Shown: positions 1,793 to 26,512 of the stretch, one piece after another
Layout: every line of letters starts with the position of its first letter
Numbering within the stretch: position 1 is the stretch's first letter
Origin: a virus
Virus record (IMG/VR): IMGVR_UViG_3300009507_000051
DNA: 35,628 nucleotides
Strand: one strand, 5' to 3'
Program-made: the position numbers and the translations under genes
Notes under the pieces: generated by a model
The model's input: only the letters and a program-made list of their open reading frames with translations
Database searches by the model: none
Told to the model about the DNA's origin: nothing

Positions 1793-1794
1793 AA

Positions 1795-3186
1795 ATGGCG
1801 ACAGTAACAGAATTAGTAACCAAATTTAGCTTTGTTGGAAGCCTAAACCCTCTAAAGAATTTCAGAAGCGGATTGGCTGGAGCTACAATAGGCACGGCAA
1901 AAATGGCTGCTGGATTGGCCGTGGCTGCTGGCTCGGCTTTAGCTTTTGGTAATGCAATAGCTCAATCACTAAAGCCATTAAACGTACTATCAAAGCAAAG
2001 TGGCGTAACAGTAGGAAATATACAAAAGCTAGAGTTTGCAGCGCTATCCACAGGAGCTAACATTGGATCACTTGAAATGGCATTGGAAAGCTTATCCCAG
2101 CAAGTAAACCAAACAGCATTAACAGGGCAGGGTACTTTAGTAGAAAGGTTAGGTCTTGGTGCTGAAGATTTAGAGAACTCTGAAACAGCATTATTCGGAG
2201 CTATACGAGCAATGAATGATATGGGATTTGATAGAAGACAGCGACTTGCTATAGCTGAAGAATTAGGCCTAGATGCATCACTAATAGGCTTGCTTGAATC
2301 AAGCAACCATGAACTTCAAAGAATGTCAAAAATAGCTGATGATATAGGATTTATAACGCCTGAGCAAAGCAAGGCGGTAGAAGAGTATACAAACTTAACC
2401 GCTACATTAGGCCTTAGTTTTAAGCGACTAGGTGAGCAGCTGGGAGTATCACTACTTCCTGCACTAAATGAAACGGCAGAATCTATGTTTAGTATTGTTA
2501 GATCTGTTGCTCCAGCTCTTAAGCGTGCTTTTGGTGTTATAAGCTTCGGTATCGTTACGGCTACTGATTTTATAAAAGATCATATAGGATTTTTAACAGT
2601 ACTTGGTGGAACCCTTCTTGCGGTTACGGCTGGCCCAATATTACTTGCAGCGGCGCTAGCATTAATACCAGTAGCTCTTAAGGCTATTTTAATAGCTCCA
2701 TTCCTGCTTGTTCTACAAGACCTTCACGTTGCATTTAATGACGGCAAATCGGTTATTGGTGACTGGGTAGAAAAAATGACTGGCATCGACCTCACCAAGG
2801 CTGGATCGGCAATAAAAGATCTGGCTGGAGATATTAGAAATATTTTAGGCGATGCTTTTGATTATGTTATAGAAAAAATTGAAGGATTATTCGGCTGGAT
2901 AGGAAAGCTAGGTAAAATTATAGGTGAAGACTTGGCAGAAAGTAGAATATCAGACTTGCAATCAACAGGCCAACTACCTACAGGTAATGAAGAGTTCTTG
3001 ACATACAGAGCAAGAAAGGCTTTAGAATCTAGAAACTCTGGCGGCGGATCTAACACTACAAACAATGTTACTGTTGAAGTCAATACGAATAAAGAAAGCG
3101 TCGCAGACGCAGCAGTTGGTGGCGTATACAAAAGATACGGCTCCGGTACATTAGAAGCTGAGCAAAACAGAAGGAGCGGTAGATAA
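1795..3186 (+). CDS. Tail tape measure protein
   Basis: 463 aa. The N-terminal half is Ala/Gly/Leu-rich and helical. A central hydrophobic block reads FLTVLGGTLLAVTAGPILLAAALALIPVALKAILIAPFLLVL. The gene sits directly after the chaperone frameshift pair. Confidence 0.8.
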   Translation: MATVTELVTKFSFVGSLNPLKNFRSGLAGATIGTAKMAAGLAVAAGSALAFGNAIAQSLKPLNVLSKQSGVTVGNIQKLEFAALSTGANIGSLEMALESLSQQVNQTALTGQGTLVERLGLGAEDLENSETALFGAIRAMNDMGFDRRQRLAIAEELGLDASLIGLLESSNHELQRMSKIADDIGFITPEQSKAVEEYTNLTATLGLSFKRLGEQLGVSLLPALNETAESMFSIVRSVAPALKRAFGVISFGIVTATDFIKDHIGFLTVLGGTLLAVTAGPILLAAALALIPVALKAILIAPFLLVLQDLHVAFNDGKSVIGDWVEKMTGIDLTKAGSAIKDLAGDIRNILGDAFDYVIEKIEGLFGWIGKLGKIIGEDLAESRISDLQSTGQLPTGNEEFLTYRARKALESRNSGGGSNTTNNVTVEVNTNKESVADAAVGGVYKRYGSGTLEAEQNRRSGR

Positions 3187-3989
3187 TGCCATCAAAACTA
3201 GAAAACTACAGAGACTCGGTAAGAAAGGCCCTTAGCGGTACTAATGAAAAAAGCACGCAACTAGGCATAGGTGGGTTTACCACCCTTGCTAGAGTTTCTG
3301 AGACCGTACAAAGAACAGCACAAGTACCAGCAATAACGCTAGAAGATGGAACGGTTATAAGTGATCACATAATTCTCGATCCATTAACCATAAACATATC
3401 TGGCGATGTATCTGATATTTATATAGAAAAAAACAAAAACATAGGCCTTATTGGAGATATATCTGACAAACTTAGCGTGGTAGATCAGTATCTTCCACAA
3501 CGAACACAGTCGCAAATAAGCAAGGCAGAAGGTATTATAAACGACGTAAATAATAAGGCCTTGAGAGTTGTTAATGAGATAGATAGGATTGATGGATTTT
3601 TCTCAGACCTTATGTCTAATTCAAACCCTGACACTAAAAATAGAGAAAAATTTGTTAATCAAATGAAGGCGTTTTACGAGGGAAGAAGACCTATATCAAT
3701 AGACATGCCAGACAACCAAAAACTGGATAATATGGTTATAACGTCACTATCATTTGAGTATGATAATCAAGGTGACAGTACTGGTTTTTCAATAGAAGCC
3801 ACACAAGTAACATTCGTAAAAACACAAGCGTCTGATATAGCACTAGCTCCAAAACAAGAAGAATCTGACGCAGTATCTGAAAATGAAGATAAAGGCCCAC
3901 AAGAGCCTCAAGAAGCAGCAGAAAGCGTACTTGGAGGTGTGCTTGATGAGTATGGAATTAAATTCATTAAAAGAACAGAAGGGGCTTAA
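3186..3989 (+). CDS. Tail or baseplate hub-associated protein (position of Mu gp43 / DNA-circulation-like protein)
   Basis: 267 aa. The start overlaps the tape measure stop (TAATG). The call rests on synteny only. Confidence 0.4.
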   Translation: MPSKLENYRDSVRKALSGTNEKSTQLGIGGFTTLARVSETVQRTAQVPAITLEDGTVISDHIILDPLTINISGDVSDIYIEKNKNIGLIGDISDKLSVVDQYLPQRTQSQISKAEGIINDVNNKALRVVNEIDRIDGFFSDLMSNSNPDTKNREKFVNQMKAFYEGRRPISIDMPDNQKLDNMVITSLSFEYDNQGDSTGFSIEATQVTFVKTQASDIALAPKQEESDAVSENEDKGPQEPQEAAESVLGGVLDEYGIKFIKRTEGA

Positions 3990-3990
3990 G

Positions 3991-4326
3991 ATGATTAGAG
4001 AAGTAAGAAACATAACAAGCGAAGCGCATCAAACACACTCGCTATTTTATAATGACGTACAAGCTGAACTTGAATTAAGATTTATTCCACAAGTTGGGCA
4101 GTGGTTTATTAGCTGCACTATTGGAGACAAAGCTATAAAAAATGCAAAGCTATCAGTTGGTGTGCTTCATATGGTATCAAGAAACATGCCAATTGATTTT
4201 ATAGTGGTAGATAACAGCGGTGAAGATTTAGATCCGTTTTTATCTACAGATTTTACTAGCGGTAGGTGTACTTTACTGATGCTTGATGATGAATCTATGA
4301 CAGACCTTAGGGGTGTAGAGGTGTAA
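3991..4326 (+). CDS. Hypothetical baseplate assembly protein (111 aa)
   Basis: ATG 3991 follows the stop of the upstream gene by 1 nt. The track start at 3883 would overlap the upstream gene by 107 nt, so it is unlikely. Confidence 0.5.
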   Translation: MIREVRNITSEAHQTHSLFYNDVQAELELRFIPQVGQWFISCTIGDKAIKNAKLSVGVLHMVSRNMPIDFIVVDNSGEDLDPFLSTDFTSGRCTLLMLDDESMTDLRGVEV

Positions 4327-4327
4327 T

Positions 4328-5194
4328 ATGGAAAATAAAAGATTTTTAAGAAGCTACAAGCTAACAGTAACTACAGAAACAGGCTCTGTTATTATTAGCG
4401 ATCCTTTAAAAATATCTTTCTCTTGCAATAAATCGATATCGGGCGGGCTTAATAGCTCAACAATTAATATTTATAATATTGCACAAAAGTCAAGAGAATT
4501 AATATCAAAAGAAAGATTTCAGACAGACAAAAGAATTAAAGTAACTTTAGATGTTGGTTATGGTGACAGATCGGAAACTATATTTAAAGGAACTGTGCTT
4601 AGCGCTATTAGCTTAAGAGATGGAGCTGACATAGTAACTGAAATTGAAGCTACTGACGGCGGAGAGGCTCTTGAGAAGTCATTTGTAACTAAGGTTATAG
4701 ACGCCGGGGTTGATAAGGTTGAAGAAATTGTTGACGAACTAACAGGTGTTGCGAAAGGGAAGGTTACCGCCAAAGTCGTTAACACAAGGCCAATCGTTAT
4801 TGTTGGAAACGCCGTTGAAGAATTAAGGAAGGCATCAAGAGAAAACGGCTATATATTTTATATAGGTGAAGAAAAATGCCATGTTATAAAATCAGACGAG
4901 GTTATATTTGAGCAAGTTCAAATAGTAAAGGCATCTACCGGATTAATAAACACGCCAACAAGAGAAGGTTTAAATGTTGTATTCAATACGGTTCTAAACC
5001 CAGCTATTAAGGTTGGTGGAAAAGTTAAGGTAGAGAGCGAGGTTGATAAGAGAGATGCTAAAGAAGGTGGCGTAAATGGCATTTATGTTGTAACATCTAT
5101 GAATATACAGGGCGATAATTACGGCGACTTATGGAATCAAACTATAACAGCAAAGCCCTTTGGTGTAAATATCGGAGATGGAAATGCAAATTAA
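4328..5194 (+). CDS. Baseplate hub protein (Mu gp44 / P2 gpD / XkdQ-like position)
   Basis: 288 aa, tightly packed between baseplate genes. The size and order match hub proteins of Mu-like and PBSX-like tails. Confidence 0.45.
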   Translation: MENKRFLRSYKLTVTTETGSVIISDPLKISFSCNKSISGGLNSSTINIYNIAQKSRELISKERFQTDKRIKVTLDVGYGDRSETIFKGTVLSAISLRDGADIVTEIEATDGGEALEKSFVTKVIDAGVDKVEEIVDELTGVAKGKVTAKVVNTRPIVIVGNAVEELRKASRENGYIFYIGEEKCHVIKSDEVIFEQVQIVKASTGLINTPTREGLNVVFNTVLNPAIKVGGKVKVESEVDKRDAKEGGVNGIYVVTSMNIQGDNYGDLWNQTITAKPFGVNIGDGNAN

Positions 5195-5792
5195 AAATAG
5201 AAGTGATTTATTTGATTTAATGAGAGGTGAGATAGATTTTGCATTATCAAACCTACATACATCCACTATAGCAAGGGTGACAAAAGTAAACGAAAAGACA
5301 ATAAACTGCAAAGTTATAATACCTCTTGATGTTGATGGTGAGCTTGTTCAGATGCCAGAGTTTATTAAGGTTCCACCAATATTTATGCAAGGCGGTGGAT
5401 CGTACACCGCCCACCCAATAAAGCCGGGAGATTATTGCTTGCTTGTATTTACTGAGCGTTGTTTTGATGCTTGGTACGGTGGTAGTGATGATGTGGAGAA
5501 GCCAGACTTTAGGATGCATGATTACTCAGACGGATTTGCTATTGTTGGTGTTAATCCTCTAGAGGCTGCAATATCTATACCAGAAGTTATAACTAATATT
5601 GGTGACAGCTATCATGAAGGAGATCACGAGCATAAAGGAGACTTGGAGCAGGATGGTAGTCAAAAGATAACAGGAAGTAACGACGCCAAGGATTATAAGG
5701 TTGATGGGGAAGATGGAGCAACGGGCGTTTTCTTAGACTTAAACGGAAAATCAGTAACCGTAAAGAGTGGTATAATAACAAGTATAGTGTAA
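5178..5792 (+). CDS. Baseplate central spike (Mu gp45 / Gp138-N-like)
   Basis: The N-terminal OB-like region (TSTIARVTKVNEKTINCKVIIPL...GDYCLLVFTER...DYSDGFAIVG) and the His-rich C-terminus (GDHEHKGD) resemble Mu-type spikes. The second ATG at 5184 has better spacing to the RBS GGAGA. Confidence 0.55.
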   Translation: MEMQIKNRSDLFDLMRGEIDFALSNLHTSTIARVTKVNEKTINCKVIIPLDVDGELVQMPEFIKVPPIFMQGGGSYTAHPIKPGDYCLLVFTERCFDAWYGGSDDVEKPDFRMHDYSDGFAIVGVNPLEAAISIPEVITNIGDSYHEGDHEHKGDLEQDGSQKITGSNDAKDYKVDGEDGATGVFLDLNGKSVTVKSGIITSIV

Positions 5793-5800
5793 AAAGTAAA

Positions 5801-5982
5801 GTGCAACGTTTTGTGACACCCTTATATAATAGTAATTACAAAAACGTTGCACTTACTTAATTCGCTCCGCTCACTTTCTTTTATTTTTTATTATAAGCTA
5901 TCCATTTAAAACAAACCTCAACCTCTCACTAATGGATACAAAATCAAACAAAACAAACACAGCAGCGATAGCTGCTTTTTTT
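5801..5982 (+). repeat. Structured intergenic element, copy 1 (subfamily A)
   Basis: - Inverted repeat 5801-5814 / 5838-5852.
- Invariant G-poor block 5853-5898.
- Stem 5899-5906 / 5931-5938 with a 24-nt loop.
- A-rich tract.
- GC hairpin 5961-5976 followed by a T-run. Confidence 0.9.
5961..5982 (+). terminator. Intrinsic terminator at the 3' end of element copy 1
   Basis: AGCAGC-GATA-GCTGCT followed by TTTTTTT. A-rich on the left, so it could act in both directions. Confidence 0.65.
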
Positions 5983-5985
5983 AAA

Positions 5986-6014
5986 TTGCTTTAAGGGCAT
6001 AATTATTGTATAAT
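5986..6014 (+). promoter_or_regulatory. Sigma70-type promoter TTGCTT-17-TATAAT for the baseplate, fibre and lysis operon
   Basis: -35 at 5986-5991 and -10 at 6009-6014, 27 nt upstream of ATG 6042. Confidence 0.55.
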
Positions 6015-6041
6015 AATTAATAAACTAATATCGGTGGCAAA

Positions 6042-6395
6042 ATGAAAGTTTCAGCAATTACAAATAATGGCGACTGGACGTTCGGGAGCGGACTTGCAGG
6101 CTACAAAAAGAAAAGCTCAGCTATTAGGCAAAATATAGCTACAAGGCTGCGATCGTTTAAGAATGATTATTTTTTAGACGTAAACGCAGGAACTGATTGG
6201 TTATCTATCCTATCTACCCCTAACAATAAACTAACGCTAGAGAGAGCTGTTAGGAGTGTAGTTATAACTACAGAAGGTGTTCTTAGTGTTGATAGTGTAT
6301 CAATAATAGTTAGTGATAGAGTAGCAAAGGTTGAGGTTACTTACACAGATATTTACGAATTACAAATAGTCATTACAGAGAGAATACAAGCATGA
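6042..6395 (+). CDS. Baseplate wedge protein (gpW / gp25 / XkdS-like position)
   Basis: 117 aa, RBS GGTGG. Its stop overlaps the start of the J-like gene (ATGA). Confidence 0.5.
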   Translation: MKVSAITNNGDWTFGSGLAGYKKKSSAIRQNIATRLRSFKNDYFLDVNAGTDWLSILSTPNNKLTLERAVRSVVITTEGVLSVDSVSIIVSDRVAKVEVTYTDIYELQIVITERIQA

Positions 6396-7555
6396 TACAG
6401 TTAACAGATAACGGCATCGAGATACAAACATACCAAGAGGTTTTTGACGAGCTTGCTAATGGCTACAAGGCTATTTACGGCAACGATATCAACCTTGACC
6501 AAGATACTCCGGACGGACAGCGTATAGCTATCGAAGCGCGTCAAATTTTAGATATGCAAGTTTACTTATCGTCTCTTTATAACTCATTAGATCCAGACTT
6601 CGCAACAGGACTGAGTTTAGAGCGATTACTAAAATTATCGGGCATAACAAGGCGTCCGGCAACAAAATCACAAGTTGACGTAACAATTAATGTATCACGT
6701 AATCTAACGCTACCAGTAGGTTATAAAGTCCAAGATGAGCTTGGCCAGTTGTGGGAGACTGACGGCGAGAAGACGCTTTTTATTGGTGACAATACTGTTA
6801 CGCTATTCGCGGAAGAGTTCGGCGCTACAGAAGCGCAAGCTGGCACAGTAAACGAACAAGCAACCATCGTGTTAGGTGTGGTATCGATTACTAACGACAC
6901 TTCGGCAACGGTAGGGCAAGACGAGGAAACTGACGTTGAACTTAGAGTTAAGCGAAACAAGTCACTACAAAATCCGTCAAGCACGGGCGTGGGAAGTATG
7001 TTTTCTGCAATTGCTCAGTTACCAAACGTTACAGACTTAGCGGTTTACGAGAACTTCACTAATCAATTTGATACTGATACACAAATGGAGGCTCATAGTA
7101 TATGGGTGGTAGTTGAAGGCGGAACTGTTGAAGGTATTACAGAAACTATAATTAAAAACAAAGATACTGGTACAGGCCTAAAAGGTGATGTTACTGGAGA
7201 GTATACGGAAACGGTTACGGTTGGTGACTTGACTTTTGATAGAACAACTACTGTTGAGTTTGATAGACCTATTAGCTCAGATATTTTTCTTAAGGTTAAT
7301 ATCAAAGGTGAAGGTGGAATAATTCCAAATACAGATTTAATAAAACAGCAGTTATCTAACGCAACCTATTCAATTGGTGATGACGTTGTAGCAAGTAAGC
7401 TATACAATATCATTTATACGACGCAGGACGGCATTGTGGCCACTGATTTAGAAATCAGTAGTAATGGCATTGATTACGTCGATACTCTTGTTGACGGCGT
7501 TCCTGCTACTAAATACGTATTAGATGTTGATAACATCGATATCAACTTAATTTAA
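6392..7555 (+). CDS. Baseplate J-like protein
   Basis: 387 aa. The size and position between the W-like and I-like genes are typical of P2 gpJ / Mu gp47 / XkdT. Confidence 0.65.
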   Translation: MIQLTDNGIEIQTYQEVFDELANGYKAIYGNDINLDQDTPDGQRIAIEARQILDMQVYLSSLYNSLDPDFATGLSLERLLKLSGITRRPATKSQVDVTINVSRNLTLPVGYKVQDELGQLWETDGEKTLFIGDNTVTLFAEEFGATEAQAGTVNEQATIVLGVVSITNDTSATVGQDEETDVELRVKRNKSLQNPSSTGVGSMFSAIAQLPNVTDLAVYENFTNQFDTDTQMEAHSIWVVVEGGTVEGITETIIKNKDTGTGLKGDVTGEYTETVTVGDLTFDRTTTVEFDRPISSDIFLKVNIKGEGGIIPNTDLIKQQLSNATYSIGDDVVASKLYNIIYTTQDGIVATDLEISSNGIDYVDTLVDGVPATKYVLDVDNIDINLI

Positions 7556-7564
7556 GGAGTTACA

Positions 7565-8167
7565 ATGTCTGACTTTATTATGCAGTATATAAATCTACTG
7601 ATCATACAATACTACAATAAACCTAACGCAAGAGCAGAGATTGCAAATTTTTCTTCTCAATTCGAATCAATAAAAAGCGCAGCGGATGCGCTTCTTGAGG
7701 AGTTTGATATTGACGTAGCTACTGGCGCAACTCTCGATAAGATTGGTAAGATTGTTGGGATAAAGAGATCTGAACCTGTATTAAATGATGATGAGGTTTA
7801 TAGATTTTTTATAAAACTTAAGATAGCCAAGAATAACGCGTTAGGCTCTTTAACCTCTGATACAAATAATGGTATACAGGATGTTATAAAATTTGCCTTT
7901 GGTAATGATTCTTATATCGTTGACAAAAAAAACATGTCAATGGACTTGTATGTACCGGAAGGTACAGACGTGGATATATTAAGAACCATATTTAGGTTAA
8001 ACTTGTTGCCAAGACCCCAAGGTGTGCGCTACAATAACGTAAAGATTTCATCAAGTGAGCCTAAATTCGGTATAAGTAATAACCCTTTTGCAGCTCCATT
8101 CTCAAGCAAGAATGATGCCAGTTATACTAACGGCGCTCCATTTGATAGAAAAATAGTAATAAACTAA
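7565..8167 (+). CDS. Baseplate protein, gpI-like position (fibre attachment)
   Basis: 200 aa, RBS AAGGAG. It lies between the J-like gene and the tail fibres. Confidence 0.45.
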   Translation: MSDFIMQYINLLIIQYYNKPNARAEIANFSSQFESIKSAADALLEEFDIDVATGATLDKIGKIVGIKRSEPVLNDDEVYRFFIKLKIAKNNALGSLTSDTNNGIQDVIKFAFGNDSYIVDKKNMSMDLYVPEGTDVDILRTIFRLNLLPRPQGVRYNNVKISSSEPKFGISNNPFAAPFSSKNDASYTNGAPFDRKIVIN

Positions 8168-8178
8168 AGGTGTAAATA

Positions 8179-11004
8179 ATGTCAAAAATTTTAAGACCAA
8201 ATAAAAACATAGTTTCATTCTCATCTAAAGCGGCTACGGGCGAGCGTACAACGTTTAACACATCTAATGTGACTGATGACCTGTCTGCTAATATTAATAG
8301 CGACTACAAGCGCGGGTTTAAGGTTTACGGGCCGGATGAAGTACTGGAAATGAAAGACATGAACGCTTTCGCGTTTACCTTATCGGATCTTACTTCTTAT
8401 TTATTTCAGTCAGGTATTGCAGAATATGACTCACAGCAAGAGTATCATTTGAACCAAATGTGTTCAGAGGATGGCGTTATTTACGTATCTCTGCAAAATG
8501 ATAATATTGGTAACAACCCGGTTGGAGAGAACTCACTTTGGTTAAGTAATTCAAATACTGAAAACAAAGCGCCCTCTGCATCTACTGCGTCAATAAACGA
8601 CAATCAATTTGTTCAATTCGATTTATCCAACAATAAGTTGTTCTTGGTGGATGCTTCTGATGATAGTATATCTTATGTTAATTCTGAAGGCAGCGAGGTT
8701 GATGGCTTTATATCAAGTGATTTTTTATCTTATCAGTATACTACATCTGTCGATAATGTTGCGATGGGTTTTTCTGGTTTTGTTATAGCAGGTGAGACGA
8801 CTGTTGACGTTGGTGATAATCAATTCTTTTCTGTTATATGTGATACTAATATCAATGGAGAAAAAAAGCTTGTATTGTTTAACTCTTTAGGGTTCCCCGA
8901 TCCTGTTAGTATTCCTGCTTCATCTAATATTCAAGATGCAGAGATTGAAGGTTATTCAAATGCGTTTCCAACTTGTGCTGTTAAAGACCCAAGCTCAGAC
9001 ACAATCTTTGTTACTTATGGCTGGACTTTTGGCGCACCAGTATCAGAGCAGAATGCTTTTATCATAGCTTATTCTTTTGATAGAAATTCTGGTTTATTTA
9101 CTAAGGTAGGTAATAGATTTGATATTACTGCTAGTGGTGCTAATGATGGAAACGGACAGCCAATGTATAGCGGGTTTGTACCTAAACTAAATGGCGATGC
9201 TCAAATTGTAGACGTGTATGGAAATCTAATTTCTTTTAATGGCATTGATTTTTCTTATGAAGGTATTATTGATAGTTCAGCCATTGATTCGTCTCAATCA
9301 TTTTCTGTTACGTTTCCTTTTTCTGCTTGTGATTTTATAAGAGATGATATTATAGCGCTTAGAGGTGTTGGCCTACAGTCGTCTGATAGAACAGGGTTAA
9401 TAATAGCTTCTTATGATGAGGCGCTAAATACAGTATCAATACTGTCGGAAACTGACTTTGCCAATATAGGTGATGGTTCTGGGGATACTGAGGTTACTCT
9501 AAAAATACAGAGGGTTGGTGATTCTCAAGTGTACGTTTACGGATTAAATCATAAGTATGTATTAAAATTTGATAGTGAGTTTGAGGTTACTGCCATATCT
9601 GGTAACGTAGACGATCTCTTGCCAAGTGATGGAAGTTCCAATATAAAACAAGGTAGTGTTTTAGTATTGCCTAACAAGAATATACTAGCCGTACCGGAGT
9701 CAGGGACTGTTTTTTATACAGCAACTAGCGACTCAACATTTGCTCAATCAGTATGCTCTTCAAAGGGTGTTAGGGTTTTTGCAACTAACGGATCTAACAT
9801 ATTAGCTTATGATATAGATAGAGAAAACGGAACATTCACAAAGGTAGGGAATTCTCTTGAGTTATCAAGCCCTGATAATTCTGTTAGCTTGTGCTCTATA
9901 GTTAGTGATAACTTACCTAGCAACGGTACGCTGGATTACATCCTTGTTTATACAGATACGAACGGTGAGATTAATTGCTACTCATTTAATGGACTTAATT
10001 TTGAGTTTTACAAGCAGGTTTACACATCTAACATTACTGGCTTTAAAAGTCAGGTATCGAACATAAGTAGAAACGGAGATATTGTTCTATTTAACGATAG
10101 AGGAAGACAAGAGTTTGTTAGCCACTCTGTAAATACTGATGGTGACTTTGTTATTGTAAACAATGTATCTAGCAACTCTATTCACACCCCTAATCCCAAC
10201 ATAATAGGTGGGGTAGATGGTAACGTAGTAGCAACAAGTCAAGACGGTACGCTGCTTTATAATTATGATTTTACTTCAGCAGATCCGGAACTAACAAGCA
10301 TTCAAGAGCTAATGCAACCAGCGGTGGATGTTGTGGCACTTACGGAAGAGAATAGGATCGTATCGACTGGTTTTAATAACAGGCTTACTAGCTACAACTT
10401 GAGCTTTATCCCTAAAGATACAGCGTTTTGGCGCAGGCTTGATGGCGGTCAAAATTTATCATTTGATGGATCGGACATCGGAATTAATTCAACTAATATC
10501 AATGACGCAATTAAAGCTTTATTGACAGACGTTAGATATCCAGTTGGTGCTATACATATGAGCGCGGAAGACTCAAGGAACCCTGCGGAAATACTTGGCT
10601 TTGGTACTTGGCAAAAAATAGAAGGTAAATTTATTGTAGGTCACGATGGATCAGATTCTGACTTTGATGATGTTAATGCCAGTGGCGGCGATAAATCTCA
10701 CACGCACAGTGTTACAAGCGGTACAAGCGCGGTTAAGGTTAGCACTACAGTAAGTAGAAGTGACTGGGGCGCAGAGCAGACTGATGGCGTACTATCAAGC
10801 GGCTCAATACCTTCGGTAAGTGGTAGATTGGTCACAGGTTCTGGCAATAGCGAAAATGCAGAAAACCTAGAATCTCTGGGCCACGCATTTAATAATAAAG
10901 AACTGGAAAGTGATTTTCATAATCACGCAATAAACACAAATACAAATGAAGCTAGTAATCTACCTCCTTATTTGGCTCTTTACTTATGGGAAAGAATAGG
11001 GTAA
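8179..11004 (+). CDS. Tail fibre 1 (941 aa)
   Basis: The N-terminal 120 aa or so and the C-terminal 190 aa or so are paralogous to the next gene. The C-terminus has tail-collar-like motifs: YPVGAIHMS...NPAEILGFGTWQKIEGKF, GGDKSHTHS, HNHAI, NLPPYLALYLWERI. Confidence 0.8.
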   Translation: MSKILRPNKNIVSFSSKAATGERTTFNTSNVTDDLSANINSDYKRGFKVYGPDEVLEMKDMNAFAFTLSDLTSYLFQSGIAEYDSQQEYHLNQMCSEDGVIYVSLQNDNIGNNPVGENSLWLSNSNTENKAPSASTASINDNQFVQFDLSNNKLFLVDASDDSISYVNSEGSEVDGFISSDFLSYQYTTSVDNVAMGFSGFVIAGETTVDVGDNQFFSVICDTNINGEKKLVLFNSLGFPDPVSIPASSNIQDAEIEGYSNAFPTCAVKDPSSDTIFVTYGWTFGAPVSEQNAFIIAYSFDRNSGLFTKVGNRFDITASGANDGNGQPMYSGFVPKLNGDAQIVDVYGNLISFNGIDFSYEGIIDSSAIDSSQSFSVTFPFSACDFIRDDIIALRGVGLQSSDRTGLIIASYDEALNTVSILSETDFANIGDGSGDTEVTLKIQRVGDSQVYVYGLNHKYVLKFDSEFEVTAISGNVDDLLPSDGSSNIKQGSVLVLPNKNILAVPESGTVFYTATSDSTFAQSVCSSKGVRVFATNGSNILAYDIDRENGTFTKVGNSLELSSPDNSVSLCSIVSDNLPSNGTLDYILVYTDTNGEINCYSFNGLNFEFYKQVYTSNITGFKSQVSNISRNGDIVLFNDRGRQEFVSHSVNTDGDFVIVNNVSSNSIHTPNPNIIGGVDGNVVATSQDGTLLYNYDFTSADPELTSIQELMQPAVDVVALTEENRIVSTGFNNRLTSYNLSFIPKDTAFWRRLDGGQNLSFDGSDIGINSTNINDAIKALLTDVRYPVGAIHMSAEDSRNPAEILGFGTWQKIEGKFIVGHDGSDSDFDDVNASGGDKSHTHSVTSGTSAVKVSTTVSRSDWGAEQTDGVLSSGSIPSVSGRLVTGSGNSENAENLESLGHAFNNKELESDFHNHAINTNTNEASNLPPYLALYLWERIG

Positions 11005-11031
11005 AATAAATAAAAATTCTAAGGAATAAAA

Positions 11032-12837
11032 ATGGCTAAAATTAATCGACCTAATACAAATGTTAAGGCCTTCGCTTCGGAGGCCTTGGCCGGAGAAAGA
11101 ACAATTTTTGATGATTCTACATCGTCGGACGATCTTGCTCAAAACCTAAACCCTAGCTTTGCGAGAGGCTTTGGGGTTTTTGGCCCTTCTGAGTTTCCAA
11201 CATTAGAGGACTTTAATGGATTTGGTTACACAGCTACTCAGCTCGTATCATACCTGTATCAGCAAGGCGTTCCGGAATGGACACAGGCTCAGACTTACTA
11301 TAAAAACTCGTTAGCATCGGTTGACGGGCGTATTTTCGTATCATCTCAAAACGACAATACAGGCAATAACCCGGCTCAAGGAATTTCACAAGATTATACT
11401 AACTGGGAAGAGTCAAACCAAATATCAACGCCAGTATTATCATCATCTAAAATAACAAAGATAAATGATATTGGTTACCATGCAAAAGTTAATACTGATA
11501 ATACAATAACTATTTTTAGCGAAAAGGTTCTTATTAGTGATAATGAAACAGTTGTGGTATTGGATGAAGAGTTTTCTGATACCATTAATATGATCCAAAC
11601 AGGTGCTATGTATATAACTAGACTATCTGAAGATAGGATCGCGGTTATGACTCAGAGTGAGATCGGCGTTTATGATATCGATACTGACGCACTAACCGTA
11701 AACCAAGTAGGCTCAAAGCTTCCTTTGTCTTTAGTTACTGCTACTGATTACGATATTGTAGGACTATCCATAGCACCTACCACAACCAACCATATGGCCG
11801 TTTACAATGGTGATAATGGTAACATCCGTATTTATAGCTTTGACGGCTCTGCGTTCACTGACGAAGGCGTGAAGTACAGCGGACTATCTGGAAGAATACA
11901 GCTTGCAAAAACTTTATTTGATGGTAGTGACTTAGTGGCATACAGCAACTCTGTTCAAGAGATTTACAAGTTATCTTATAACGGAACCTCTTTCGACCTA
12001 GATGGTACTACATCTACCGCAGGCTTTGATTCTTTTAATACAATTAGTAGCGGAGAGCTTAATACTATTATTGCCTACAATGTAGGTGGAGCGAGCGCAA
12101 GGGTATTGTCTACGTCTGGATCTTCTATCTTTGAACTTGGTGTGGCGGTAGATACTTCACCAAACCTTATAACAGATGCTATACTTACTGGCGAAAATCT
12201 ATTGGTTATTAGTGATGCGGAAGATGCTGTCTCTCTTTATGTATCAAGTAATGGCGAGGCTGCTGGTAATTCATTCTGGCGACTATTGTCAGCCCAAGGT
12301 ATCGGGTTCGATGGCTCAGGTACAAACATAATGTCCAACAACGTTCAGGACGCAATAAAAGAAGTTGCAAAAGAGTTTATATATCCTGTTGGCGGATTGT
12401 GGATCAATAGAGTTGACGAAAGAAATCCTTCAGAAATCCTAGGCTTCGGCTCTTGGATAAAAGTAGAAGGTAGATTTTTAGCAGGTGATAGCTCTCTTGA
12501 CAATGACTTTAATGCTGGCACTACTGGCGGTAGTAAAAACCACTCTCACGAAGTTGAAGGTGATACGCAAAATGCCACTGTTACAACCACTATACCAAGA
12601 GATGGCTGGGGCGCTTTGCAGTCAGGCGGAAAGCTACCGGAACCAACTACTAGCGGTAGATTAGTAACAGGCTCAGGAGATACTGAAACATCGGAAGCCT
12701 TGGAGTCACTAGCGCACGCGTCTGGAGATAGAGATATTGATGCTCAACCTCACTCGCACACAATAGATACAAGCACAGATACTCAAAGCAACCTACCACC
12801 GTACGAAGTTTACTACGTATGGCGAAGAATCTCATAA
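11032..12837 (+). CDS. Tail fibre 2 (601 aa)
   Basis: It has the same N-terminal module (M-KI-RPN-N...GERT-F...NDN-GNNP) and the same C-terminal module (YPVGGLWIN...NPSEILGFGSWIKVEGRF, GGSKNHSHE, HSHTI, NLPPYEVYYVWRRI) as fibre 1. The centre is unrelated. Confidence 0.8.
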   Translation: MAKINRPNTNVKAFASEALAGERTIFDDSTSSDDLAQNLNPSFARGFGVFGPSEFPTLEDFNGFGYTATQLVSYLYQQGVPEWTQAQTYYKNSLASVDGRIFVSSQNDNTGNNPAQGISQDYTNWEESNQISTPVLSSSKITKINDIGYHAKVNTDNTITIFSEKVLISDNETVVVLDEEFSDTINMIQTGAMYITRLSEDRIAVMTQSEIGVYDIDTDALTVNQVGSKLPLSLVTATDYDIVGLSIAPTTTNHMAVYNGDNGNIRIYSFDGSAFTDEGVKYSGLSGRIQLAKTLFDGSDLVAYSNSVQEIYKLSYNGTSFDLDGTTSTAGFDSFNTISSGELNTIIAYNVGGASARVLSTSGSSIFELGVAVDTSPNLITDAILTGENLLVISDAEDAVSLYVSSNGEAAGNSFWRLLSAQGIGFDGSGTNIMSNNVQDAIKEVAKEFIYPVGGLWINRVDERNPSEILGFGSWIKVEGRFLAGDSSLDNDFNAGTTGGSKNHSHEVEGDTQNATVTTTIPRDGWGALQSGGKLPEPTTSGRLVTGSGDTETSEALESLAHASGDRDIDAQPHSHTIDTSTDTQSNLPPYEVYYVWRRIS

Positions 12838-14228: not shown

Positions 14229-14744
14229 TTATGCAAAGTTTAGTAGGCCAAATTTGCCGTGTAGTCGCTTACATGCTTCATCATATGCAAGAGCCGCTTC
14301 GTGAGCAGTAGGAAATACGCCAAGTGATTTTACTTTTCCGTATCGTGTTATACGTGCTCGGAATTTATTGGTTGCAATTTTTGATACGCCTTTAAATGAA
14401 ACTGTTCCGCGTGATTCTCGATTAAAGCAGTTTTGAGAAGCAGTAACCTTACGTAGGTTTTTTAATCTGTCGTCTAATGTGTTGCGGTTGATGTGATCTA
14501 CCTGATAGCCTTTTGGTACTGCACCGTTGTGGTAGATGAAAACAAGTACTGAATTATAAAAAAGCTTTCCGCCTAATGATACTCTTACTCGACCATTATC
14601 AATAAAGCCTGCTGACTTCCCTTCGAACCTAGCGTTGAACTTAGTATTGCCTTCTCTCGACTTATATATTAATCGACCTGTCTGTTCGTTATAATCAAAA
14701 ATTTTACGTAATTGCGTTTTAGTTGGACGTTTTGTTAATTTCAT
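14229..14744 (-). CDS. HNH homing endonuclease with a C-terminal AP2-type DNA-binding domain
   Basis: HNH_3-like motif: YHNGAVPKGYQVDHINRNTLDDRLKNLRKVTASQN. AP2-like motif: FKGVSK...KFRARITRYGKVKSLGVFPTAHEAALAYDEA. Confidence 0.8.
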   Translation of the reverse strand: MKLTKRPTKTQLRKIFDYNEQTGRLIYKSREGNTKFNARFEGKSAGFIDNGRVRVSLGGKLFYNSVLVFIYHNGAVPKGYQVDHINRNTLDDRLKNLRKVTASQNCFNRESRGTVSFKGVSKIATNKFRARITRYGKVKSLGVFPTAHEAALAYDEACKRLHGKFGLLNFA

Positions 14745-14829: not shown

Positions 14830-14879
14830 GTGTTTTTTGTAAATTATTTAATTTATTTTATATTTAATCCTTTTATCAA

Positions 14880-15047
14880 GCGCAACGTTTTGTGACACCC
14901 TTATATAATAGTAATTACAAAAACGTTGCACTTACTTAATTCGCTCCGCTCACTTTCTTTTATTTTTTATTATAAGCTACCCATTAGAACAATAGCACCA
15001 CCAACCAATGGGTAAAACATTAAACAAAACAAAACACCGCGAAGCGG
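14880..15047 (+). repeat. Structured intergenic element, copy 2 (subfamily A)
   Basis: - Inverted repeat 14880-14893 / 14917-14931.
- Stem TACCCATT (14978-14985) / AATGGGTA (15007-15014) with a 21-nt loop.
- GC hairpin 15037-15047.
- About 98 nt identical to copy 1. Confidence 0.9.
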
Positions 15048-15053
15048 TTGCTC

Positions 15054-15242: not shown

Positions 15243-17609
15243 ATGTATATAGTATCAAAATCAATAATCGACACAGCACCTGAGCAAATCCTTGAAATCA
15301 CTTCAGATATCGAAAACACTATCGAACGCCTACGTGAAAACGTAAAGGCATCTGACATTATTATTAATGCAGAAGATTGCTTTGATATACAAACAGCTTT
15401 CCGCTTTCAATTAAAGTTTATCTTTAACGAGACTTTAACAAAACCTGCTGACTATAAAAAAGGAATTGATAAAGCAATCATCCTTTTAAATGCTCTTCAA
15501 TACGAAGAAGAAGTTGACGCAATAAAAACTAAAGTAAGAAACGCTTTTGTAAACGCGGTTCCAAGCATCATGTCTGAAGATGAAGCAATCAAAATAATCA
15601 ACAACGCGCCAAACACTAGCGCAAAAGAACAAATCAAATGCTCAATCATCAAAGGAATCTCAGACCGTAAAAACAAAGTAAGAAAGGCTGTTACTTTCCA
15701 AAGCGATCGCGTTATAAATGTTGAGGCAAACTACCAAGACGGAACAACTCTAACAAGTATCCAAAACAATAAAGGCGTACATATCGTAAACGGAGAAAAA
15801 GGAACAGGCAAGAGCGAACTACTTATCGAACTATTTAAAAGCGAAGTTGAGAAAGGTAACAGCCCAATGCTAATGAGCGCATCACGCGCACTATCTAGCT
15901 CAACCATCACAAAAGACATCGAGAAGTTTTACTACAAAAACATAATGGCAAACAGAGATATCGAAAACGGCAAAAGCATTGTAAGCCCACGTAAAGGTAT
16001 AATTGGCGTTATCAATACATTATTAATGCACGGCGACTTAGAGGCGCAACGAGCTAACACAAGCACGCTAATCATCGATGAAATCGAAGAGGTTCTAAAC
16101 CACATCTCAGGCTCAGCTGTTGGCCAAGGTACAATACAAGATCAGGCGGACTACTTACGTCAACTTGAACTAATGATGACAAGAGCGGATCGCGTTATAC
16201 TTACAGATGCTTTAGTATCTCAAAACACAATTGACATACTATTAAAGCTAGTATCAAAAAATACAAGATTCTATGAGCATAAGCAATTAAGCCAATTTGC
16301 TAAACCTGTTATCAAGTACACAAATGAAGCCCAACTTATCGAACACGCTAAGGAAGTATCAAGCAAATCAAAAATTGGCGTATTCTGTGACGGTTCACAC
16401 TCTGAAAAGGTATCTAAACTAAATGCCACTATTAATTCAATAGCAGACAAAAAGAACCACTCACTAATTGATAGTAACTTTATGACGGACAAAAACAAAT
16501 CTATCCTCCTAAAGGATCGCGCCAAATTTTCTAAAGATAATGACATTATTTTTTATAACTCGGCAGCAAAATGCGGACTTTCAATTAAGGATGCTGATTA
16601 CAAAAATACTTTCTTAATCTCTTGTGGTACTGTTAACCCAAATGAGCTTGTACAATCTTCTGCTCGCTTTAGAATGGCGGAAGAAGTAATGCTCGCATTC
16701 TCTGGAAACTTCAAAGACCGTGCATTACTTGCACCACTACTAGTAGCGGCAGACATTGCAGTTAAGCAGGTATCACCATCAGAGATTACAGACAAGCACG
16801 CGCACGACATGCTAAACGACCGTTACAAAAAACTAATCATCGACCGCATCATTTTCAAGAACCTAATGAAGCTTGACTATAAAAACACTTCACTTGTTAT
16901 GTTCGAGATGCTTGGCTATAAAGTTGAGTACATAAAGGAAAACGAAGAGAAGCAAAAGAAAGGCGCTAAATCACGCCGTAAAGGTAGCAACGAAGAAAAG
17001 GAGATGAGACGTAACAATGTAATCAACGCTCCTAAAATTGATAGCAAAGAAGCTACAAGCCTAAGAGACATTGGTGAATATAACTCACAGGATGCAAAAA
17101 ATAAGCTAGAAAGCTATAATATTCGTAGCTCATATAATGTTACTGATATTGACTTAGAACTTATGGAGTTCGATGCTGAAGGTAAAGGCCGTACTACAAT
17201 CAAAAACATGATTATCGCAAGAGACGGCGACCTTAAAGCAAAAACAACTGAAGAGCTTGTTAAGCAAGAGATGTTTAAAAAGTTCTTTGAATTAACTGGC
17301 ATTGATGCTAACGACTTTGGAACTTACAGTCAACAAGATGCGGTAGATTTTCAAGAGTTTATCGATGAAGGCAAAATACAAATAAACAAAGGTATGAGTA
17401 TGCCAGCAAAAACGGCTTTTGATATCGCCTTTAAAGACTGTAGCTTATGCCCTAAGACGCCAATGAAAACAATATCTAGTATACTTGTAACAGCGTTTAG
17501 GCTTAAGAAGCCTGCCAATAGCGGAATGAGAAAGCAAGGCAAATATATCTACATCGCAACTAAAAACGAAACAGCTGAGAAGTACTACACACAAGTAGCA
17601 GGAAAATAA
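15243..17609 (+). CDS. P-loop SF2-like helicase, putative replication initiator or origin-binding helicase (788 aa)
   Basis: - Walker A: NGEKGTGKSEL.
- Walker B / motif II: TLIIDEIEEV.
- TDA-type motif III: VILTDALVS.
- Motif VI-like: QSSARFR.
- About 200 aa of N-terminal and 270 aa of C-terminal non-helicase regions.
- The start at 15243 fits the conserved leader AAGAAGGTAATTAATATG. Confidence 0.55.
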   Translation: MYIVSKSIIDTAPEQILEITSDIENTIERLRENVKASDIIINAEDCFDIQTAFRFQLKFIFNETLTKPADYKKGIDKAIILLNALQYEEEVDAIKTKVRNAFVNAVPSIMSEDEAIKIINNAPNTSAKEQIKCSIIKGISDRKNKVRKAVTFQSDRVINVEANYQDGTTLTSIQNNKGVHIVNGEKGTGKSELLIELFKSEVEKGNSPMLMSASRALSSSTITKDIEKFYYKNIMANRDIENGKSIVSPRKGIIGVINTLLMHGDLEAQRANTSTLIIDEIEEVLNHISGSAVGQGTIQDQADYLRQLELMMTRADRVILTDALVSQNTIDILLKLVSKNTRFYEHKQLSQFAKPVIKYTNEAQLIEHAKEVSSKSKIGVFCDGSHSEKVSKLNATINSIADKKNHSLIDSNFMTDKNKSILLKDRAKFSKDNDIIFYNSAAKCGLSIKDADYKNTFLISCGTVNPNELVQSSARFRMAEEVMLAFSGNFKDRALLAPLLVAADIAVKQVSPSEITDKHAHDMLNDRYKKLIIDRIIFKNLMKLDYKNTSLVMFEMLGYKVEYIKENEEKQKKGAKSRRKGSNEEKEMRRNNVINAPKIDSKEATSLRDIGEYNSQDAKNKLESYNIRSSYNVTDIDLELMEFDAEGKGRTTIKNMIIARDGDLKAKTTEELVKQEMFKKFFELTGIDANDFGTYSQQDAVDFQEFIDEGKIQINKGMSMPAKTAFDIAFKDCSLCPKTPMKTISSILVTAFRLKKPANSGMRKQGKYIYIATKNETAEKYYTQVAGK

Positions 17610-17692: not shown

Positions 17693-18004
17693 ATGAAAGA
17701 ATATAAACAAACATTAATTGAAGTTCTACATAAAGAGTTTAAAGACCAAAACACTTTCTTTGATATCTTTGCAGGTAAGGGCCTAGCATCAAACACATTT
17801 GAGTGGGACGAAAAAACACTACATGCTACTATGACAATCCCAAAAGGCGTTAAAGATATTGTCGACGATAGCTTTGAAATATTCACAGATACCGTCAGAG
17901 ACTTTATGAAAACTAAAGTAGCGCCAGAAGGTATGACGTACAGGGTTAATACGTACGAGCGTAAGGGTAATCTAATTCTAAAACTAGAAGCAAAGGTGAA
18001 GTAA
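17693..18004 (+). CDS. Hypothetical early protein (103 aa)
   Basis: RBS AAGGTG. The stop overlaps the next start (TAATG). Confidence 0.6.
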   Translation: MKEYKQTLIEVLHKEFKDQNTFFDIFAGKGLASNTFEWDEKTLHATMTIPKGVKDIVDDSFEIFTDTVRDFMKTKVAPEGMTYRVNTYERKGNLILKLEAKVK

Positions 18005-18519
18005 TGAAAACAATGACAGGTAAAGCATTTGAACAAAGGTTCAAGCAAGCCTGCGATGAGCAAGGCGTATTAATTATACGTCTTCGCGATGCAGGTTACC
18101 AAGGCGAGCAAACATCTCAAAGACGTTTTACGATAAAGAACGTTGCAGACTGTATTGTATTCGACGGAACAAAGTTTGTAGTATGTGAACTTAAACACAG
18201 AAAAAGCTCACTGGCATTTAAAGACATATCTCAATATAAAGACATCAAAAAGATTAATGATTTTATTGAGAGCAATGGCATGCACAATGCGACAGCCGGG
18301 CTACTGGTATGTTTTGGCTCAATGGACAAGATATACTGGGTACATATTGCAATGATAGATGAGCTTAAACACATGACGAGCAAAAAGTCATTTAATTTTA
18401 AAGACTGCCAAAAGCTTGAGTTAGATCATCCTTTGATGTGCATGAAGGTTGATGCGATCATACCGCCGAGAAAGCGCACACAACGCATAGATACGAGCTT
18501 TATAGGAGATGCAATATGA
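18004..18519 (+). CDS. PD-(D/E)XK nuclease, RecU-like Holliday junction resolvase
   Basis: 171 aa. The motif VADCIVFDGTKFVVCELKHRK fits D...E-x-K. The N-terminal GKAFEQRF resembles the RecU N-terminus. Confidence 0.5.
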   Translation: MKTMTGKAFEQRFKQACDEQGVLIIRLRDAGYQGEQTSQRRFTIKNVADCIVFDGTKFVVCELKHRKSSLAFKDISQYKDIKKINDFIESNGMHNATAGLLVCFGSMDKIYWVHIAMIDELKHMTSKKSFNFKDCQKLELDHPLMCMKVDAIIPPRKRTQRIDTSFIGDAI

Positions 18520-19469: not shown

Positions 19470-19566
19470 GTGTTTTGGCGCTGGTGGCGTGTAAAAATGC
19501 TTGGCGAGGTGGATAAAGTCGTTTAAAATCAATGCTTAGGCAAAATAATACGTTTTGTGATATCAA

Positions 19567-19674
19567 GTGCAACGTTTTGTGACACCCTATATATATAGTA
19601 ATTGCAAAAACGTTGCACTTACTTAATTCGCTACGCTCACTTTGTTTTTCTTTTTTGTTGTGTTTCCATTGGAT
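19567..19674 (+). repeat. Structured intergenic element, copy 3 (truncated and mosaic)
   Basis: Inverted repeat 19567-19580 / 19604-19618. The G-poor block is diverged. The second stem-loop has collapsed to CCATTGGAT (19666-19674). There is no A-rich tract or GC hairpin. Confidence 0.8.
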
Positions 19675-19728
19675 TTGTCAACCTGATAGCTGTTTTTGAA
19701 ATTATTTTAATTTATTTATAAAAAAGAC

Positions 19729-19779
19729 TTGCAATGTGTTTGATATTTAGTTATATTAATAATGTACCAACGGGGTACA
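19729..19779 (+). promoter_or_regulatory. Early-type promoter TTGCAA-17-TATATT plus 5' hairpin
   Basis: -35 at 19729-19734 and -10 at 19752-19757. Hairpin TGTACC-AACGG-GGTACA at 19763-19779. Confidence 0.55.
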
Positions 19780-20305: not shown

Positions 20306-20554
20306 ATGAAAAACGCACTTAACCCAGTAGACCAACGAGCAGCCAACAACCTAAAGTCAATATGGCTACAACATAAAGAAAAAAGAAAAACAACTCAATC
20401 AGAGTTCGCGGAGTCAATTGGCATAAGTCAAAGCAAGTTTGCTTTGTACTTAAATGGCCACTACCCTATCTCTCTCAACAACCTCGTTTTCTTTGCTGAC
20501 GCATTAGACTGCAACTGCTCAGATATTCGACCAGAAGTAAAGGATAAAAGATAA
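20306..20554 (+). CDS. XRE-family helix-turn-helix regulator (Cro/CI-like, 82 aa)
   Basis: TQSEFAESIGISQSKFALYLNG matches the HTH_XRE pattern. Confidence 0.65.
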   Translation: MKNALNPVDQRAANNLKSIWLQHKEKRKTTQSEFAESIGISQSKFALYLNGHYPISLNNLVFFADALDCNCSDIRPEVKDKR

Positions 20555-26315: not shown

Positions 26316-26339
26316 TGTGAAAAAGTTCACACTTTTAAA

Positions 26340-26512
26340 GTGCAACGTTTTGTGACACCCTATATATACAATATTTACAAAAACGTTGCACTTACTTAAT
26401 TCGCTCCGCTCACTTTCTTTTATTTTTTATTATAAGCTATCCATTAAATCAACATCGTTACTAAACCAATGGATAAAACACTAGACAAAATAAAACAAGC
26501 CCCGCGCAGCGG
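26340..26512 (+). repeat. Structured intergenic element, copy 4 (subfamily B)
   Basis: - Inverted repeat 26340-26353 / 26377-26391.
- Stem 26438-26445 / 26468-26475 with a 22-nt loop.
- GC hairpin 26502-26512.
- About 113 nt identical to copy 5. Confidence 0.9.

Follow-up and report, generated by a model that had tools for sequence, protein, structure and literature searches.

The window analysed here is the whole stretch of 35,628 nucleotides (nt) in IMG/VR virus record IMGVR_UViG_3300009507_000051, one tailed-phage genome of ~35.5 kb. Its subject is a palindrome at 14880-14931, which reads GCGCAACGTTTTGTGACACCCTTATATAATAGTAATTACAAAAACGTTGCAC and lies between divergent genes for an HNH endonuclease and for a helicase of 788 amino acids (aa) from superfamily 2 (SF2). 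The preliminary description of this DNA had reported the palindrome, placed one copy about 310 nt upstream of the helicase gene and proposed that it might be a replication origin. The palindrome is indeed present at those coordinates, and we measured 311 nt from the end of this copy (copy 2 of five) to the helicase ATG at 15243. The features of this region are as follows.

14229-14744, minus strand: HNH-AP2 endonuclease gene, divergent from the helicase gene, with module copy 2 between them
14877-15052, plus strand: module copy 2, with palindrome 14878-14933 (left arm AAGCGCAACG, 1 mismatch), T-rich block 14951-14979, inverted repeat ACCCATT..AATGGGT 14979-15013 and mini-hairpin ACCGCGAAGCGGT 15036-15048
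15243-17609, plus strand: gene for the 788-aa SF2 helicase, UL9-like and N15-RepA-like, the proposed initiator recognising the palindromes
18004-18519, plus strand: RecU-like Holliday-junction resolvase gene, in the same early operon as the helicase gene
20306-20554, plus strand: gene for an XRE-type helix-turn-helix protein, which the preliminary description had offered as an alternative binder of the palindrome

A five-copy module with an inverted-box palindrome

The arm of the palindrome is strongly over-represented in the window. Allowing at most one mismatch, CGTTGCACTT occurs 13 times, compared with 2.13 +/- 1.37 times in shuffled sequences, and none of 100 shuffles reaches 13. Ten of the 13 occurrences pair up as left and right arms in five palindromes (5799-5854, 14878-14933, 19565-19620, 26338-26393 and 34785-34840), all built on the plan AAGTGCAACG-N32-CGTTGCACTT with a central TATATA(TA) or, written in full, AAGTGCAACGTTTTGT, a ~23-nt core with TATATA, and ACAAAAACGTTGCACTT. 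The extended symmetry claimed for copies 1, 3 and 4 is exact, with perfect 10-mers on both arms, and copies 2 and 5 have one left-arm mismatch each.

A direct repeat of 110-176 nt, of which the palindrome is just the first third, constitutes a fuller element than the one described before. The modules start at 5798, 14877, 19564, 26337 and 34784, all five in plus orientation and all five intergenic. Directly after the palindrome comes an invariant ACTTAATTCGCTCCGCTCAC, and then a T-rich block, CACTTTCTTTTATTTTTTATTATAAGCTA, which begins at 5872, 14951, 26411 and 34858. Past this block come, in order, the inverted repeat ATCCATT-loop-AATGGAT, an A-rich block, which is the complement of the T-rich one, and then a GC mini-hairpin of the form CCGCGAAGCGG or CCGCGCAGCGG, the latter at 26502-26512 and 34949-34959. 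The second inverted repeat of copy 2 carries a compensatory change, and a sigma-70-like promoter lies downstream of every module. The copies are evenly spaced, with a probability of 0.013 under random placement that the minimum gap would be 4687 or more. The remaining four copies are laid out as follows.

5798-5973, plus strand: module copy 1, with palindrome 5799-5854, T-rich block 5872-5900 and ATCCATT..AATGGAT 5900-5937; a terminator-like hairpin, AGCAGCGATAGCTGCT followed by T7, at 5961-5982 overlaps the end of the repeat unit; neighbours are a baseplate-region gene (ends 5792) and a sheath-initiator-like gene (6042)
19564-19739, plus strand: module copy 3, with palindrome 19565-19620; it diverges after the start of the T-rich block (19638-19660), is without the GC mini-hairpin and has a strong early-type promoter after it (~19729-19757)
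26337-26512, plus strand: module copy 4, with palindrome 26338-26393, T-rich block 26411-26439, ATCCATT..AATGGAT 26439-26474 and mini-hairpin 26502-26512; neighbours are a Mu-F-like gene and a DUF2213 gene
34784-34959, plus strand: module copy 5, with palindrome 34785-34840 (left arm AGGTGCAACG, 1 mismatch) and mini-hairpin 34949-34959; a TTGACT-17-TATAAT promoter follows directly

Apart from the modules, a reverse-complement copy (88%) of the module T-rich segment CTTTTATTTTTTATTATAAGCTAT lies at 27762-27785, where it overlaps the promoter region between the DUF2213 gene and the following head gene. The element had no blastn match in 50,697 phage records, an exact 24-mer found nothing in IMG/VR, and a tRNA scan found nothing. 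Judged by eye, sites for CRP, LexA, sigma-54 and DnaA do not fit; the best DnaA-like match, TTATCCATT, agrees at 7 of 9 positions and is not kept in relatives. The core could be read as a sigma-70 promoter (GTGCAA-N15/17-TATATA), yet this leaves the conserved second box unexplained.

The helicase and its relatives

In a 7-sequence alignment the helicase has the motifs GEKGTGKSE (Walker A), DEIE (motif II) and QSSARFR (motif VI). A word-indexed search found 7 homologues, and an exhaustive profile search found 662 relatives, 78 of them at E <= 1e-30. Distant relatives, 1000-1480 aa in length, carry a Toprim domain together with the herpesvirus origin-binding family PF02399 (Herpes_ori_bp) above its cut-off of 20 bits (P0218, 52.7 bits; P0224, 34.5; P0214, 25.6). 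The window protein matches PHROGs family phrog_4913, annotated ‘replication’, at 3e-28 over profile positions 418-990 of 1290, and hhalign weakly aligned the family profile with the helicase part of N15 RepA (residues 495-957), with a probability of 81% and an E value of 1.2e-5.

When an AlphaFold model of the full-length helicase (predicted local distance difference test, pLDDT, 75.5) was compared with the PDB by Foldseek, the top three matches were all the origin-binding protein (OBP) UL9 of herpes simplex virus 1 (HSV-1) on OriS: 9hgi_A (E 3.6e-11), 9hgi_B (3.9e-10) and 9hgj_B (3.3e-9). The next matches were generic SF2 helicases, the first of them HrpA at 6e-7. Among the top 50 matches in BFVD are many helicases of giant viruses, herpesviruses and phages named ‘replication origin-binding protein’, the best match being an unnamed entry (E 1.8e-25, TM 0.48). 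Because of these structural matches, the Toprim and PF02399 domains of distant relatives and the alignment with N15 RepA, we conclude that the helicase core is UL9-like and RepA-like. The preliminary description had called the protein SF2-like, which the structure matches confirm, and had pointed to the herpes origin-binding family as the comparison to make; UL9 is the top structural match, and remote sequence relatives carry Herpes_ori_bp.

Other searches returned little. Pfam gave sub-threshold P-loop matches only, a protein-based search of IMG/VR found no relative of the helicase, and tblastn against the 50,697 phage records gave as its sole match a Leptolyngbya phage helicase at 5e-5, with T5 D2 not detected. 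PADLOC reported no defence-system match for the helicase or for its neighbours in the integrative elements described below.

Palindromes upstream of helicase genes in related phages and integrative elements

One comparison is provided by the L001/L022 phage, whose helicase and capsid are 48% and 58% identical to those of the window phage. Its palindromes read GTGCAAC-TTTT...TATATA...AAAA-GTTGCAC, are 51-52 bp long and occupy four sites syntenic with copies 1-4 of the window; two such palindromes are also found in L017. The counterparts are as follows.

Copy 1: L001 652-702
Copy 2: L001 9697-9747; L017 234-284
Copy 3: L001 14458-14509; L017 5871-5921
Copy 4: L022 8140-8190

Synteny of four of the five copies with this phage, at 48% helicase identity, means that these four are old and maintained. 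In the L001/L022 phage the core is flanked by a T-rich arm, which ends in CCATTG, and by an A-rich arm, which starts with CAATGG, and the whole ~150-nt region is therefore an imperfect palindrome; one L001 copy is flipped relative to the others. We found no counterpart of copy 5 in this phage. Copy 5 directly follows a gene for a 327-aa protease-like protein (phrog_53, 33512-34495, with its own promoter) that likewise has no counterpart at the same position there, the Peptidase_S49 genes of the L001/L022 phage being encoded at other places; the gene and copy 5 may have been gained or lost together.

These data bear on whether the modules are selfish or neutral dispersed repeats, like miniature inverted-repeat transposable elements, homogenised by gene conversion and functionless, which we consider highly improbable. 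Such repeats could account for the near-identity of copies in one genome (96% over 176 nt between copies 4 and 5) and for a copy 5 without counterpart, but not readily for four copies that remain syntenic at this divergence, with boxes conserved while the spacers drift. Moreover, no target-site duplications flank the copies and no transposase was seen.

More distant homologues of the helicase (29-35% identity) occur in L006, L023, L024, L026, L028, L034 and L038. In the first six of these, the helicase is the sole window protein with a homologue by tblastn. An ADP-ribosyl-glycohydrolase is common to all six, most also have a 405-463-aa protein and small open reading frames (ORFs), and a large serine recombinase is encoded in L028 and L034; all six have the appearance of small integrative elements. 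The element lies at 7500-18000 in L006 and at 9265-17760 in L028, L028 adjoins a PglZ fragment and L023 adjoins BrxR, and L034 is Vibrio agarilyticus NZ_JABAIK010000012.1.

The palindrome accompanies the helicase gene across this divergence. In the window, L001, L017, L006, L023, L024 and L028, the helicase gene has a TA-core palindrome 250-450 nt upstream of it, which is ~50-77 bp long, and 51-57 bp in most lineages. Inverted boxes around an A/T-rich spacer are found at seven loci besides the window. A strict palindrome finder was positive for 6 of 10 regions upstream of helicase genes, compared with a background of 0.019 per 700 nt. The palindromes of the distant homologues are listed here.

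L006, L023 and L024: GTGTAACA...TGTTACAC, with the right arm TCTTACAC in L024
L028: GTGAGTACAA...TTGTACTCA
L026: two tandem GGAGTACAAA...TTTGTAC units
L038: two tandem GTAACTATTTT...AAAATAGTTAC units

The box varies by helicase lineage (GTGCAACG, GTGCAAC, GTGTAACA, GAGTACAA and GTAACTATTTT; in short form GTGCAAC, GTGTAAC, GAGTACAA and GTAACTA) and the layout is constant. Such a change of box with helicase lineage in a kept layout is as expected if the two are a protein-site pair and, from the sequence comparison, is the signature of a protein and its putative site moving as one cassette. A search of IMG/VR with the pattern GTGCAAC..TATATA..GTTGCAC returned 9 loci; eight are chance-like matches in unrelated sequence, and the ninth, L008, is an unrelated iteron region.

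A second conserved element, a GC stem with a 3-nt loop that often reads GCGAAGC, occurs with the palindrome. It is TTCTGGCGAAGCCAGG in L026 (~9340), L028 (~8955) and L034 (~9650), TTCTGGCGAAGCCAAG in L006 (~9740) and TTCCGCGAAGCGGGAA in L038 (upstream of 1893), and corresponds to 15036-15048 in the window. This stem is conserved between the palindrome and the helicase gene though the remaining intergenic DNA of these lineages cannot be aligned, and it has no T-run after it on either strand. An inverted GCTTCGC hairpin often lies on the other side of the palindrome (L006, L024, L026 and L038).

The modules might instead act as RNA, as stable hairpins in 3' untranslated regions, as RNase III processing sites or as a non-coding RNA present in repeated copies and shaping polycistronic transcripts. 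The plus strand of the module folds at -41.2 kcal/mol (z = -7.0 relative to shuffles), copies 1 and 4 begin 6-25 nt past the stop codon of the upstream plus-strand gene, and the compensatory change in the second hairpin of copy 2 would preserve pairing. We nevertheless find this idea quite unlikely. A gathering search of Rfam gave no family match. Copy 2 comes after a minus-strand gene and a bidirectional terminator, and therefore no upstream plus-strand transcript is expected there. The main hairpin is followed by ACTTAATTCGC rather than by a U-run or T-run, the core orientation is flipped among the L001 copies, the palindrome tracks the helicase gene and not 3' ends, and the symmetric box changes are equally compatible with DNA binding.

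A nuclease gene is divergent from the helicase gene with the palindrome between them, and its family differs by lineage, being HNH-AP2 in the phages and, at the same position, Endonuclease VII in the integrative elements:

L006 8929-9381, minus strand: Endonuclease VII gene
L023 2161-2595, minus strand: Endonuclease VII gene
L038 1172-1348, minus strand: Endonuclease VII gene

The preservation of the order nuclease (minus), palindrome, helicase (plus) with non-homologous nucleases raises the possibility that the palindromes are cruciform or hairpin substrates of the neighbouring HNH or Endonuclease VII enzymes or of the RecU-like resolvase, that is, programmed nick or break sites that start recombination or recombination-dependent replication, with the helicase processing them. 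The presence of the RecU-like gene in the helicase operon and the imperfect symmetry of the whole region in L001-type copies fit this proposal, and the resolvase could act on cruciforms or on replication intermediates. We rate it as unlikely, as copy 2 alone adjoins a nuclease gene, and as the families of nuclease differ, no cognate specificity can be inferred. The proposal also overlaps, and is compatible with, an origin model.

Regulatory explanations were considered for both a specific protein and the module as a whole. The preliminary description had suggested that the palindrome could be an operator for the XRE protein. No XRE homologue was found in L006, L023, L024, L026, L028 or L034, most of which have an upstream palindrome, and L004 has an XRE homologue and no palindrome of the GTGCAAC type; on this distribution, the XRE operator is disfavoured.

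More generally, the modules might control transcription as operators, insulators or enhancers placed at operon boundaries, where a regulator on the inverted boxes would time or insulate five promoters; candidates for this regulator are the helicase, a small protein of the phage and a factor of the host. Each of the five copies is intergenic, with a sigma-70-like promoter 100-220 nt downstream of it (TTGCTT-17-TATAAT for copies 1 and 2, TTGACT-17-TATAAT for copies 4 and 5, and 19729-19757 for copy 3). The module is often preceded by, or ends in, a terminator-like hairpin, GTGCAA-N15/17-TATATA looks like a weak promoter whichever strand is read, and regulatory sites normally occur in multiple dispersed copies. 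We think this explanation deserves serious attention but is probably wrong. In a plain promoter, the second inverted box would not stay strictly conserved and fixed at 51-57 bp, and the palindrome accompanies the helicase gene into elements of other gene content and operon layout, where it lies 300-450 nt from the gene, far for an operator, with promoter-like sequence between. In addition, the XRE protein does not co-occur with the palindrome, and no sigma factor or RNA polymerase gene was seen in the window.

A candidate replication origin and its comparison with known systems

The gene content of the window phage frames the question of how it replicates. Nearly all genes are on the plus strand. 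Virion genes include the small and large terminase subunits, portal, Mu-F-like protein, DUF2184-type capsid, sheath and baseplate, and the early region encodes the 788-aa helicase, the RecU-like resolvase, the XRE protein and small ORFs of no assigned role. No DNA polymerase or primase was seen among the window ORFs scanned directly or matched by synteny to annotated relatives (the large tail-region ORFs, ~240-12837, were assigned through synteny alone and not scanned), as the preliminary description had held for the polymerase; the classes encountered were structural, packaging, helicase, HNH nuclease, RecU-like resolvase, XRE and small unknowns. GC skew rises near-monotonically, is dominated by gene orientation and gives no signature of an origin or terminus. 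The window ends in an exact 123-nt direct repeat (1-123 equals 35506-35628), and since L020, the same genome at 35,646 nt, starts at a different point, this repeat probably reflects overlap in a circular assembly and not a physical repeat at the genome ends.

Strong early-type promoters form a family in this genome (15159-15209, 18869-18919, 19720-19770 and 33427-33477; also 21355, 21741 and 22340), each with an A-rich upstream tract, CTTGCA(A/T)T, ~16-17 nt and TAATAAT/TATATT. They precede the helicase gene, other early genes and the gene for the 327-aa protease-like protein.

We propose, with moderate confidence, that each copy of the module is a replication origin and that the 788-aa helicase is its predicted initiator. 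Helicase dimers would bind the two inverted GTGCAAC boxes, 38 bp apart, and thereby put the (TA)n core under stress. Strand opening would then spread to the adjoining AT-rich inverted repeat of T-block and A-block, and the exposed strands would fold into hairpins, the GC mini-hairpin among them. The host replisome would be recruited; no polymerase or primase was seen in the phage. What the analysis shows is a module present in five copies, a helicase core like those of UL9 and RepA, and the co-inheritance of helicase and palindrome with lineage-specific boxes; binding by the helicase, melting, origin firing and the use of all five copies are what we infer.

The origin interpretation offered in the preliminary description draws support from the SF2, UL9-like fold, from Herpes_ori_bp in remote relatives, from the coupling of palindrome and helicase and from the OriS-like layout, but several observations weigh against it. 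At the level of the protein, neither the helicase nor six close homologues match PF02399 even at E <= 10, searches of PDB sequences with the helicase and with its profile gave no match, the alignment behind the structural model holds 7 sequences only, and the TM-scores to UL9 are low (~0.34). The C-terminal 294 aa (residues 495-788), modelled alone with a pLDDT of 79, had a best PDB match at E 1.9, and the origin-binding domain of UL9, with its SAP-like subdomain and RVKNL motif, was not detected in this model; an invariant SQxxKNxL stretch in the 7-sequence alignment (S615-L622) is a lead only. At the level of the DNA, the box orientation is opposite to that in OriS, and the box GTTGCAC is one base shorter than GTTCGCAC of OriS. 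The T-rich block, which had been expected to melt easily, is AT-rich and at the 86th-99th percentile for low duplex stability, but the genome reaches its lowest stability in early promoters at other positions. It would be unusual for 35 kb to hold five dispersed origins, although HSV-1 has three (PMC12543377) and the copies are evenly spaced, and the sigma-70-like promoter after every copy fits a transcriptional role too. Finally, the related phages L004 and L036 have the helicase, and no upstream palindrome of the GTGCAAC type was found in them. They have GGAACAC/GTGTTCC inverted repeats instead (L004 9712-9740 and 16232; L036 14857-14914 and 14970), of which the one in L036 extends over 58 bp, is centred on ATATAT and has a third half-site close by. 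These repeats may be diverged counterparts of the module.

UL9-like phage helicases and cassettes of initiator and origin are already known. What is new is a candidate OriS-like palindromic site for a UL9-like phage helicase, with apparent covariation of site and protein across phages and integrative elements, and the amplification of this site, of which one phage lineage carries four or five dispersed copies. The proposal is concrete in that it pairs one defined helicase with one defined palindrome of 56 bp, a pair for which the natural box variants are ready-made specificity swaps, and it gives a putative replication cassette to small integrative elements of marine gammaproteobacteria, including one in a Vibrio agarilyticus genome. 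If confirmed, it would provide a tractable bacterial model for the opening of UL9-type origins, would connect herpesviruses and tailed phages through replication initiation as well as through their shared capsid and terminase, and would exemplify a small phage that has several dispersed origins and lacks its own polymerase.

Among known systems, N15 RepA has a helicase region homologous to that of the window protein (phrog_4913 at 3e-28; hhalign probability 81%), and remote relatives of the window protein have the same fusion of Toprim and helicase. RepA initiates bidirectional replication, with synthesis by the host polymerase, and N15 replication starts at a single internal ori site within repA (PMC2847241). 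The window protein differs in that it begins at about profile position 418, has no Toprim match and lacks the N-terminal primase part, and its palindrome is upstream of the helicase gene, not inside it; no comparable TA-core palindrome was found in N15 repA. The T5 D2 and pVOG9714 helicases are the closest phage relatives of UL9 via PF02399 and have been proposed as initiators, and these papers describe no cognate origin for them (PMC3632103, PMC5862659). Satellite and P4-like modules resemble the present case in that an initiator gene and its cognate cis site move jointly between phages and integrative elements, but they combine superfamily 3 or superfamily 4 helicases with direct-repeat iterons, whereas an SF2 helicase and a TA-core inverted-repeat palindrome are found here. 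In L008 (IMGVR_UViG_3300013126_000207), an unrelated phage of 51% GC, a cluster of GTGCAACAC / GTGTTGCA boxes at 7990-8250 includes one inverted pair around TATATAC..GTATATA. Because this cluster directly adjoins a PriCT_2 + AAA_25 primase-helicase gene, it is likely an iteron origin that shares the box by chance.

The closest comparison is with UL9 and OriS of HSV-1. In OriS, of which the oligonucleotide is AAAAGAAGTGAGAACGCGAAGCGTTCGCACTTCGTCCCAATATATATATATTATTAGGGCGAAGTGCGAGCACTGGCGCC, Box 1 and Box 2 are inverted around an AT spacer, Box 3 (GTGAGAAC) pairs with Box 1 (GTTCGCAC) in a hairpin whose 3-nt loop is within GCGAAGC, and HSV-1 has three redundant origins (PMC12543377). The UL9 box and OriS layout given in the preliminary description are correct by the same source, and its claim that the window box is one base short of the UL9 box also holds, as CGTTGCACTT is one deletion from Box 1 CGTTCGCACTT. 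The boxes to be compared are thus AAGTGCAACG / CGTTGCACTT in the window and AAGTGAGAACG (Box 3) and CGTTCGCACTT (Box 1) in OriS. The 7-mer GCGAAGC of the conserved GC stem is also the tip of the hairpin that Box 3 and Box 1 make in OriS.

The two systems also differ. The window helicase has no sequence-level match to UL9 or PF02399, and its C-terminal domain has no detectable likeness to the DNA-binding domain of UL9, which is of the SAP/RVKNL type (PMC12543377, PMC13483431); we therefore cannot claim homology for the nearly identical sequences of the box and UL9 Box 1. The boxes of relatives are GTTACAC, TTGTACTC and AAAATAGTTAC, not GTTCGCAC. Relative to the A/T core, the window boxes run in the reverse sense to Box 1 and Box 2 of OriS (PMC12543377), with the AAGTG end of each box distal to the core. 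The contacts described for UL9 K758 and R783 could not be kept unchanged. The window phage encodes no ICP8-like partner, polymerase or helicase-primase, and it has five copies of its palindrome.

The likenesses extend from protein to site. Both helicases are SF2 with a DExx motif II that is neither DEAD nor DEAH, which is DEIE in the window and DEVM or DEIM in herpesviruses (PMC13483431), and UL9 is the best PDB structural match of the modelled window helicase. Both sites have inverted boxes flanking a (TA)n spacer, and HSV has several redundant palindromic origins between transcription units (PMC12543377). The window core is CCC-(TA)n, with a GCGAAGC-type mini-hairpin in the region. A bolder reading, which we consider rather unlikely, is that herpesvirus-style origin recognition, defined by a UL9-type SF2 helicase, inverted GTG..AAC-type boxes, a (TA)n spacer and a nearby GCGAAGC-type mini-hairpin, is ancestral to the lineage of tailed phages and herpesviruses and survives in phages and satellites as a mobile cassette, with a five-origin genome here. 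The resemblance of the window box to UL9 Box 1 may be either coincidence or very deep homology.

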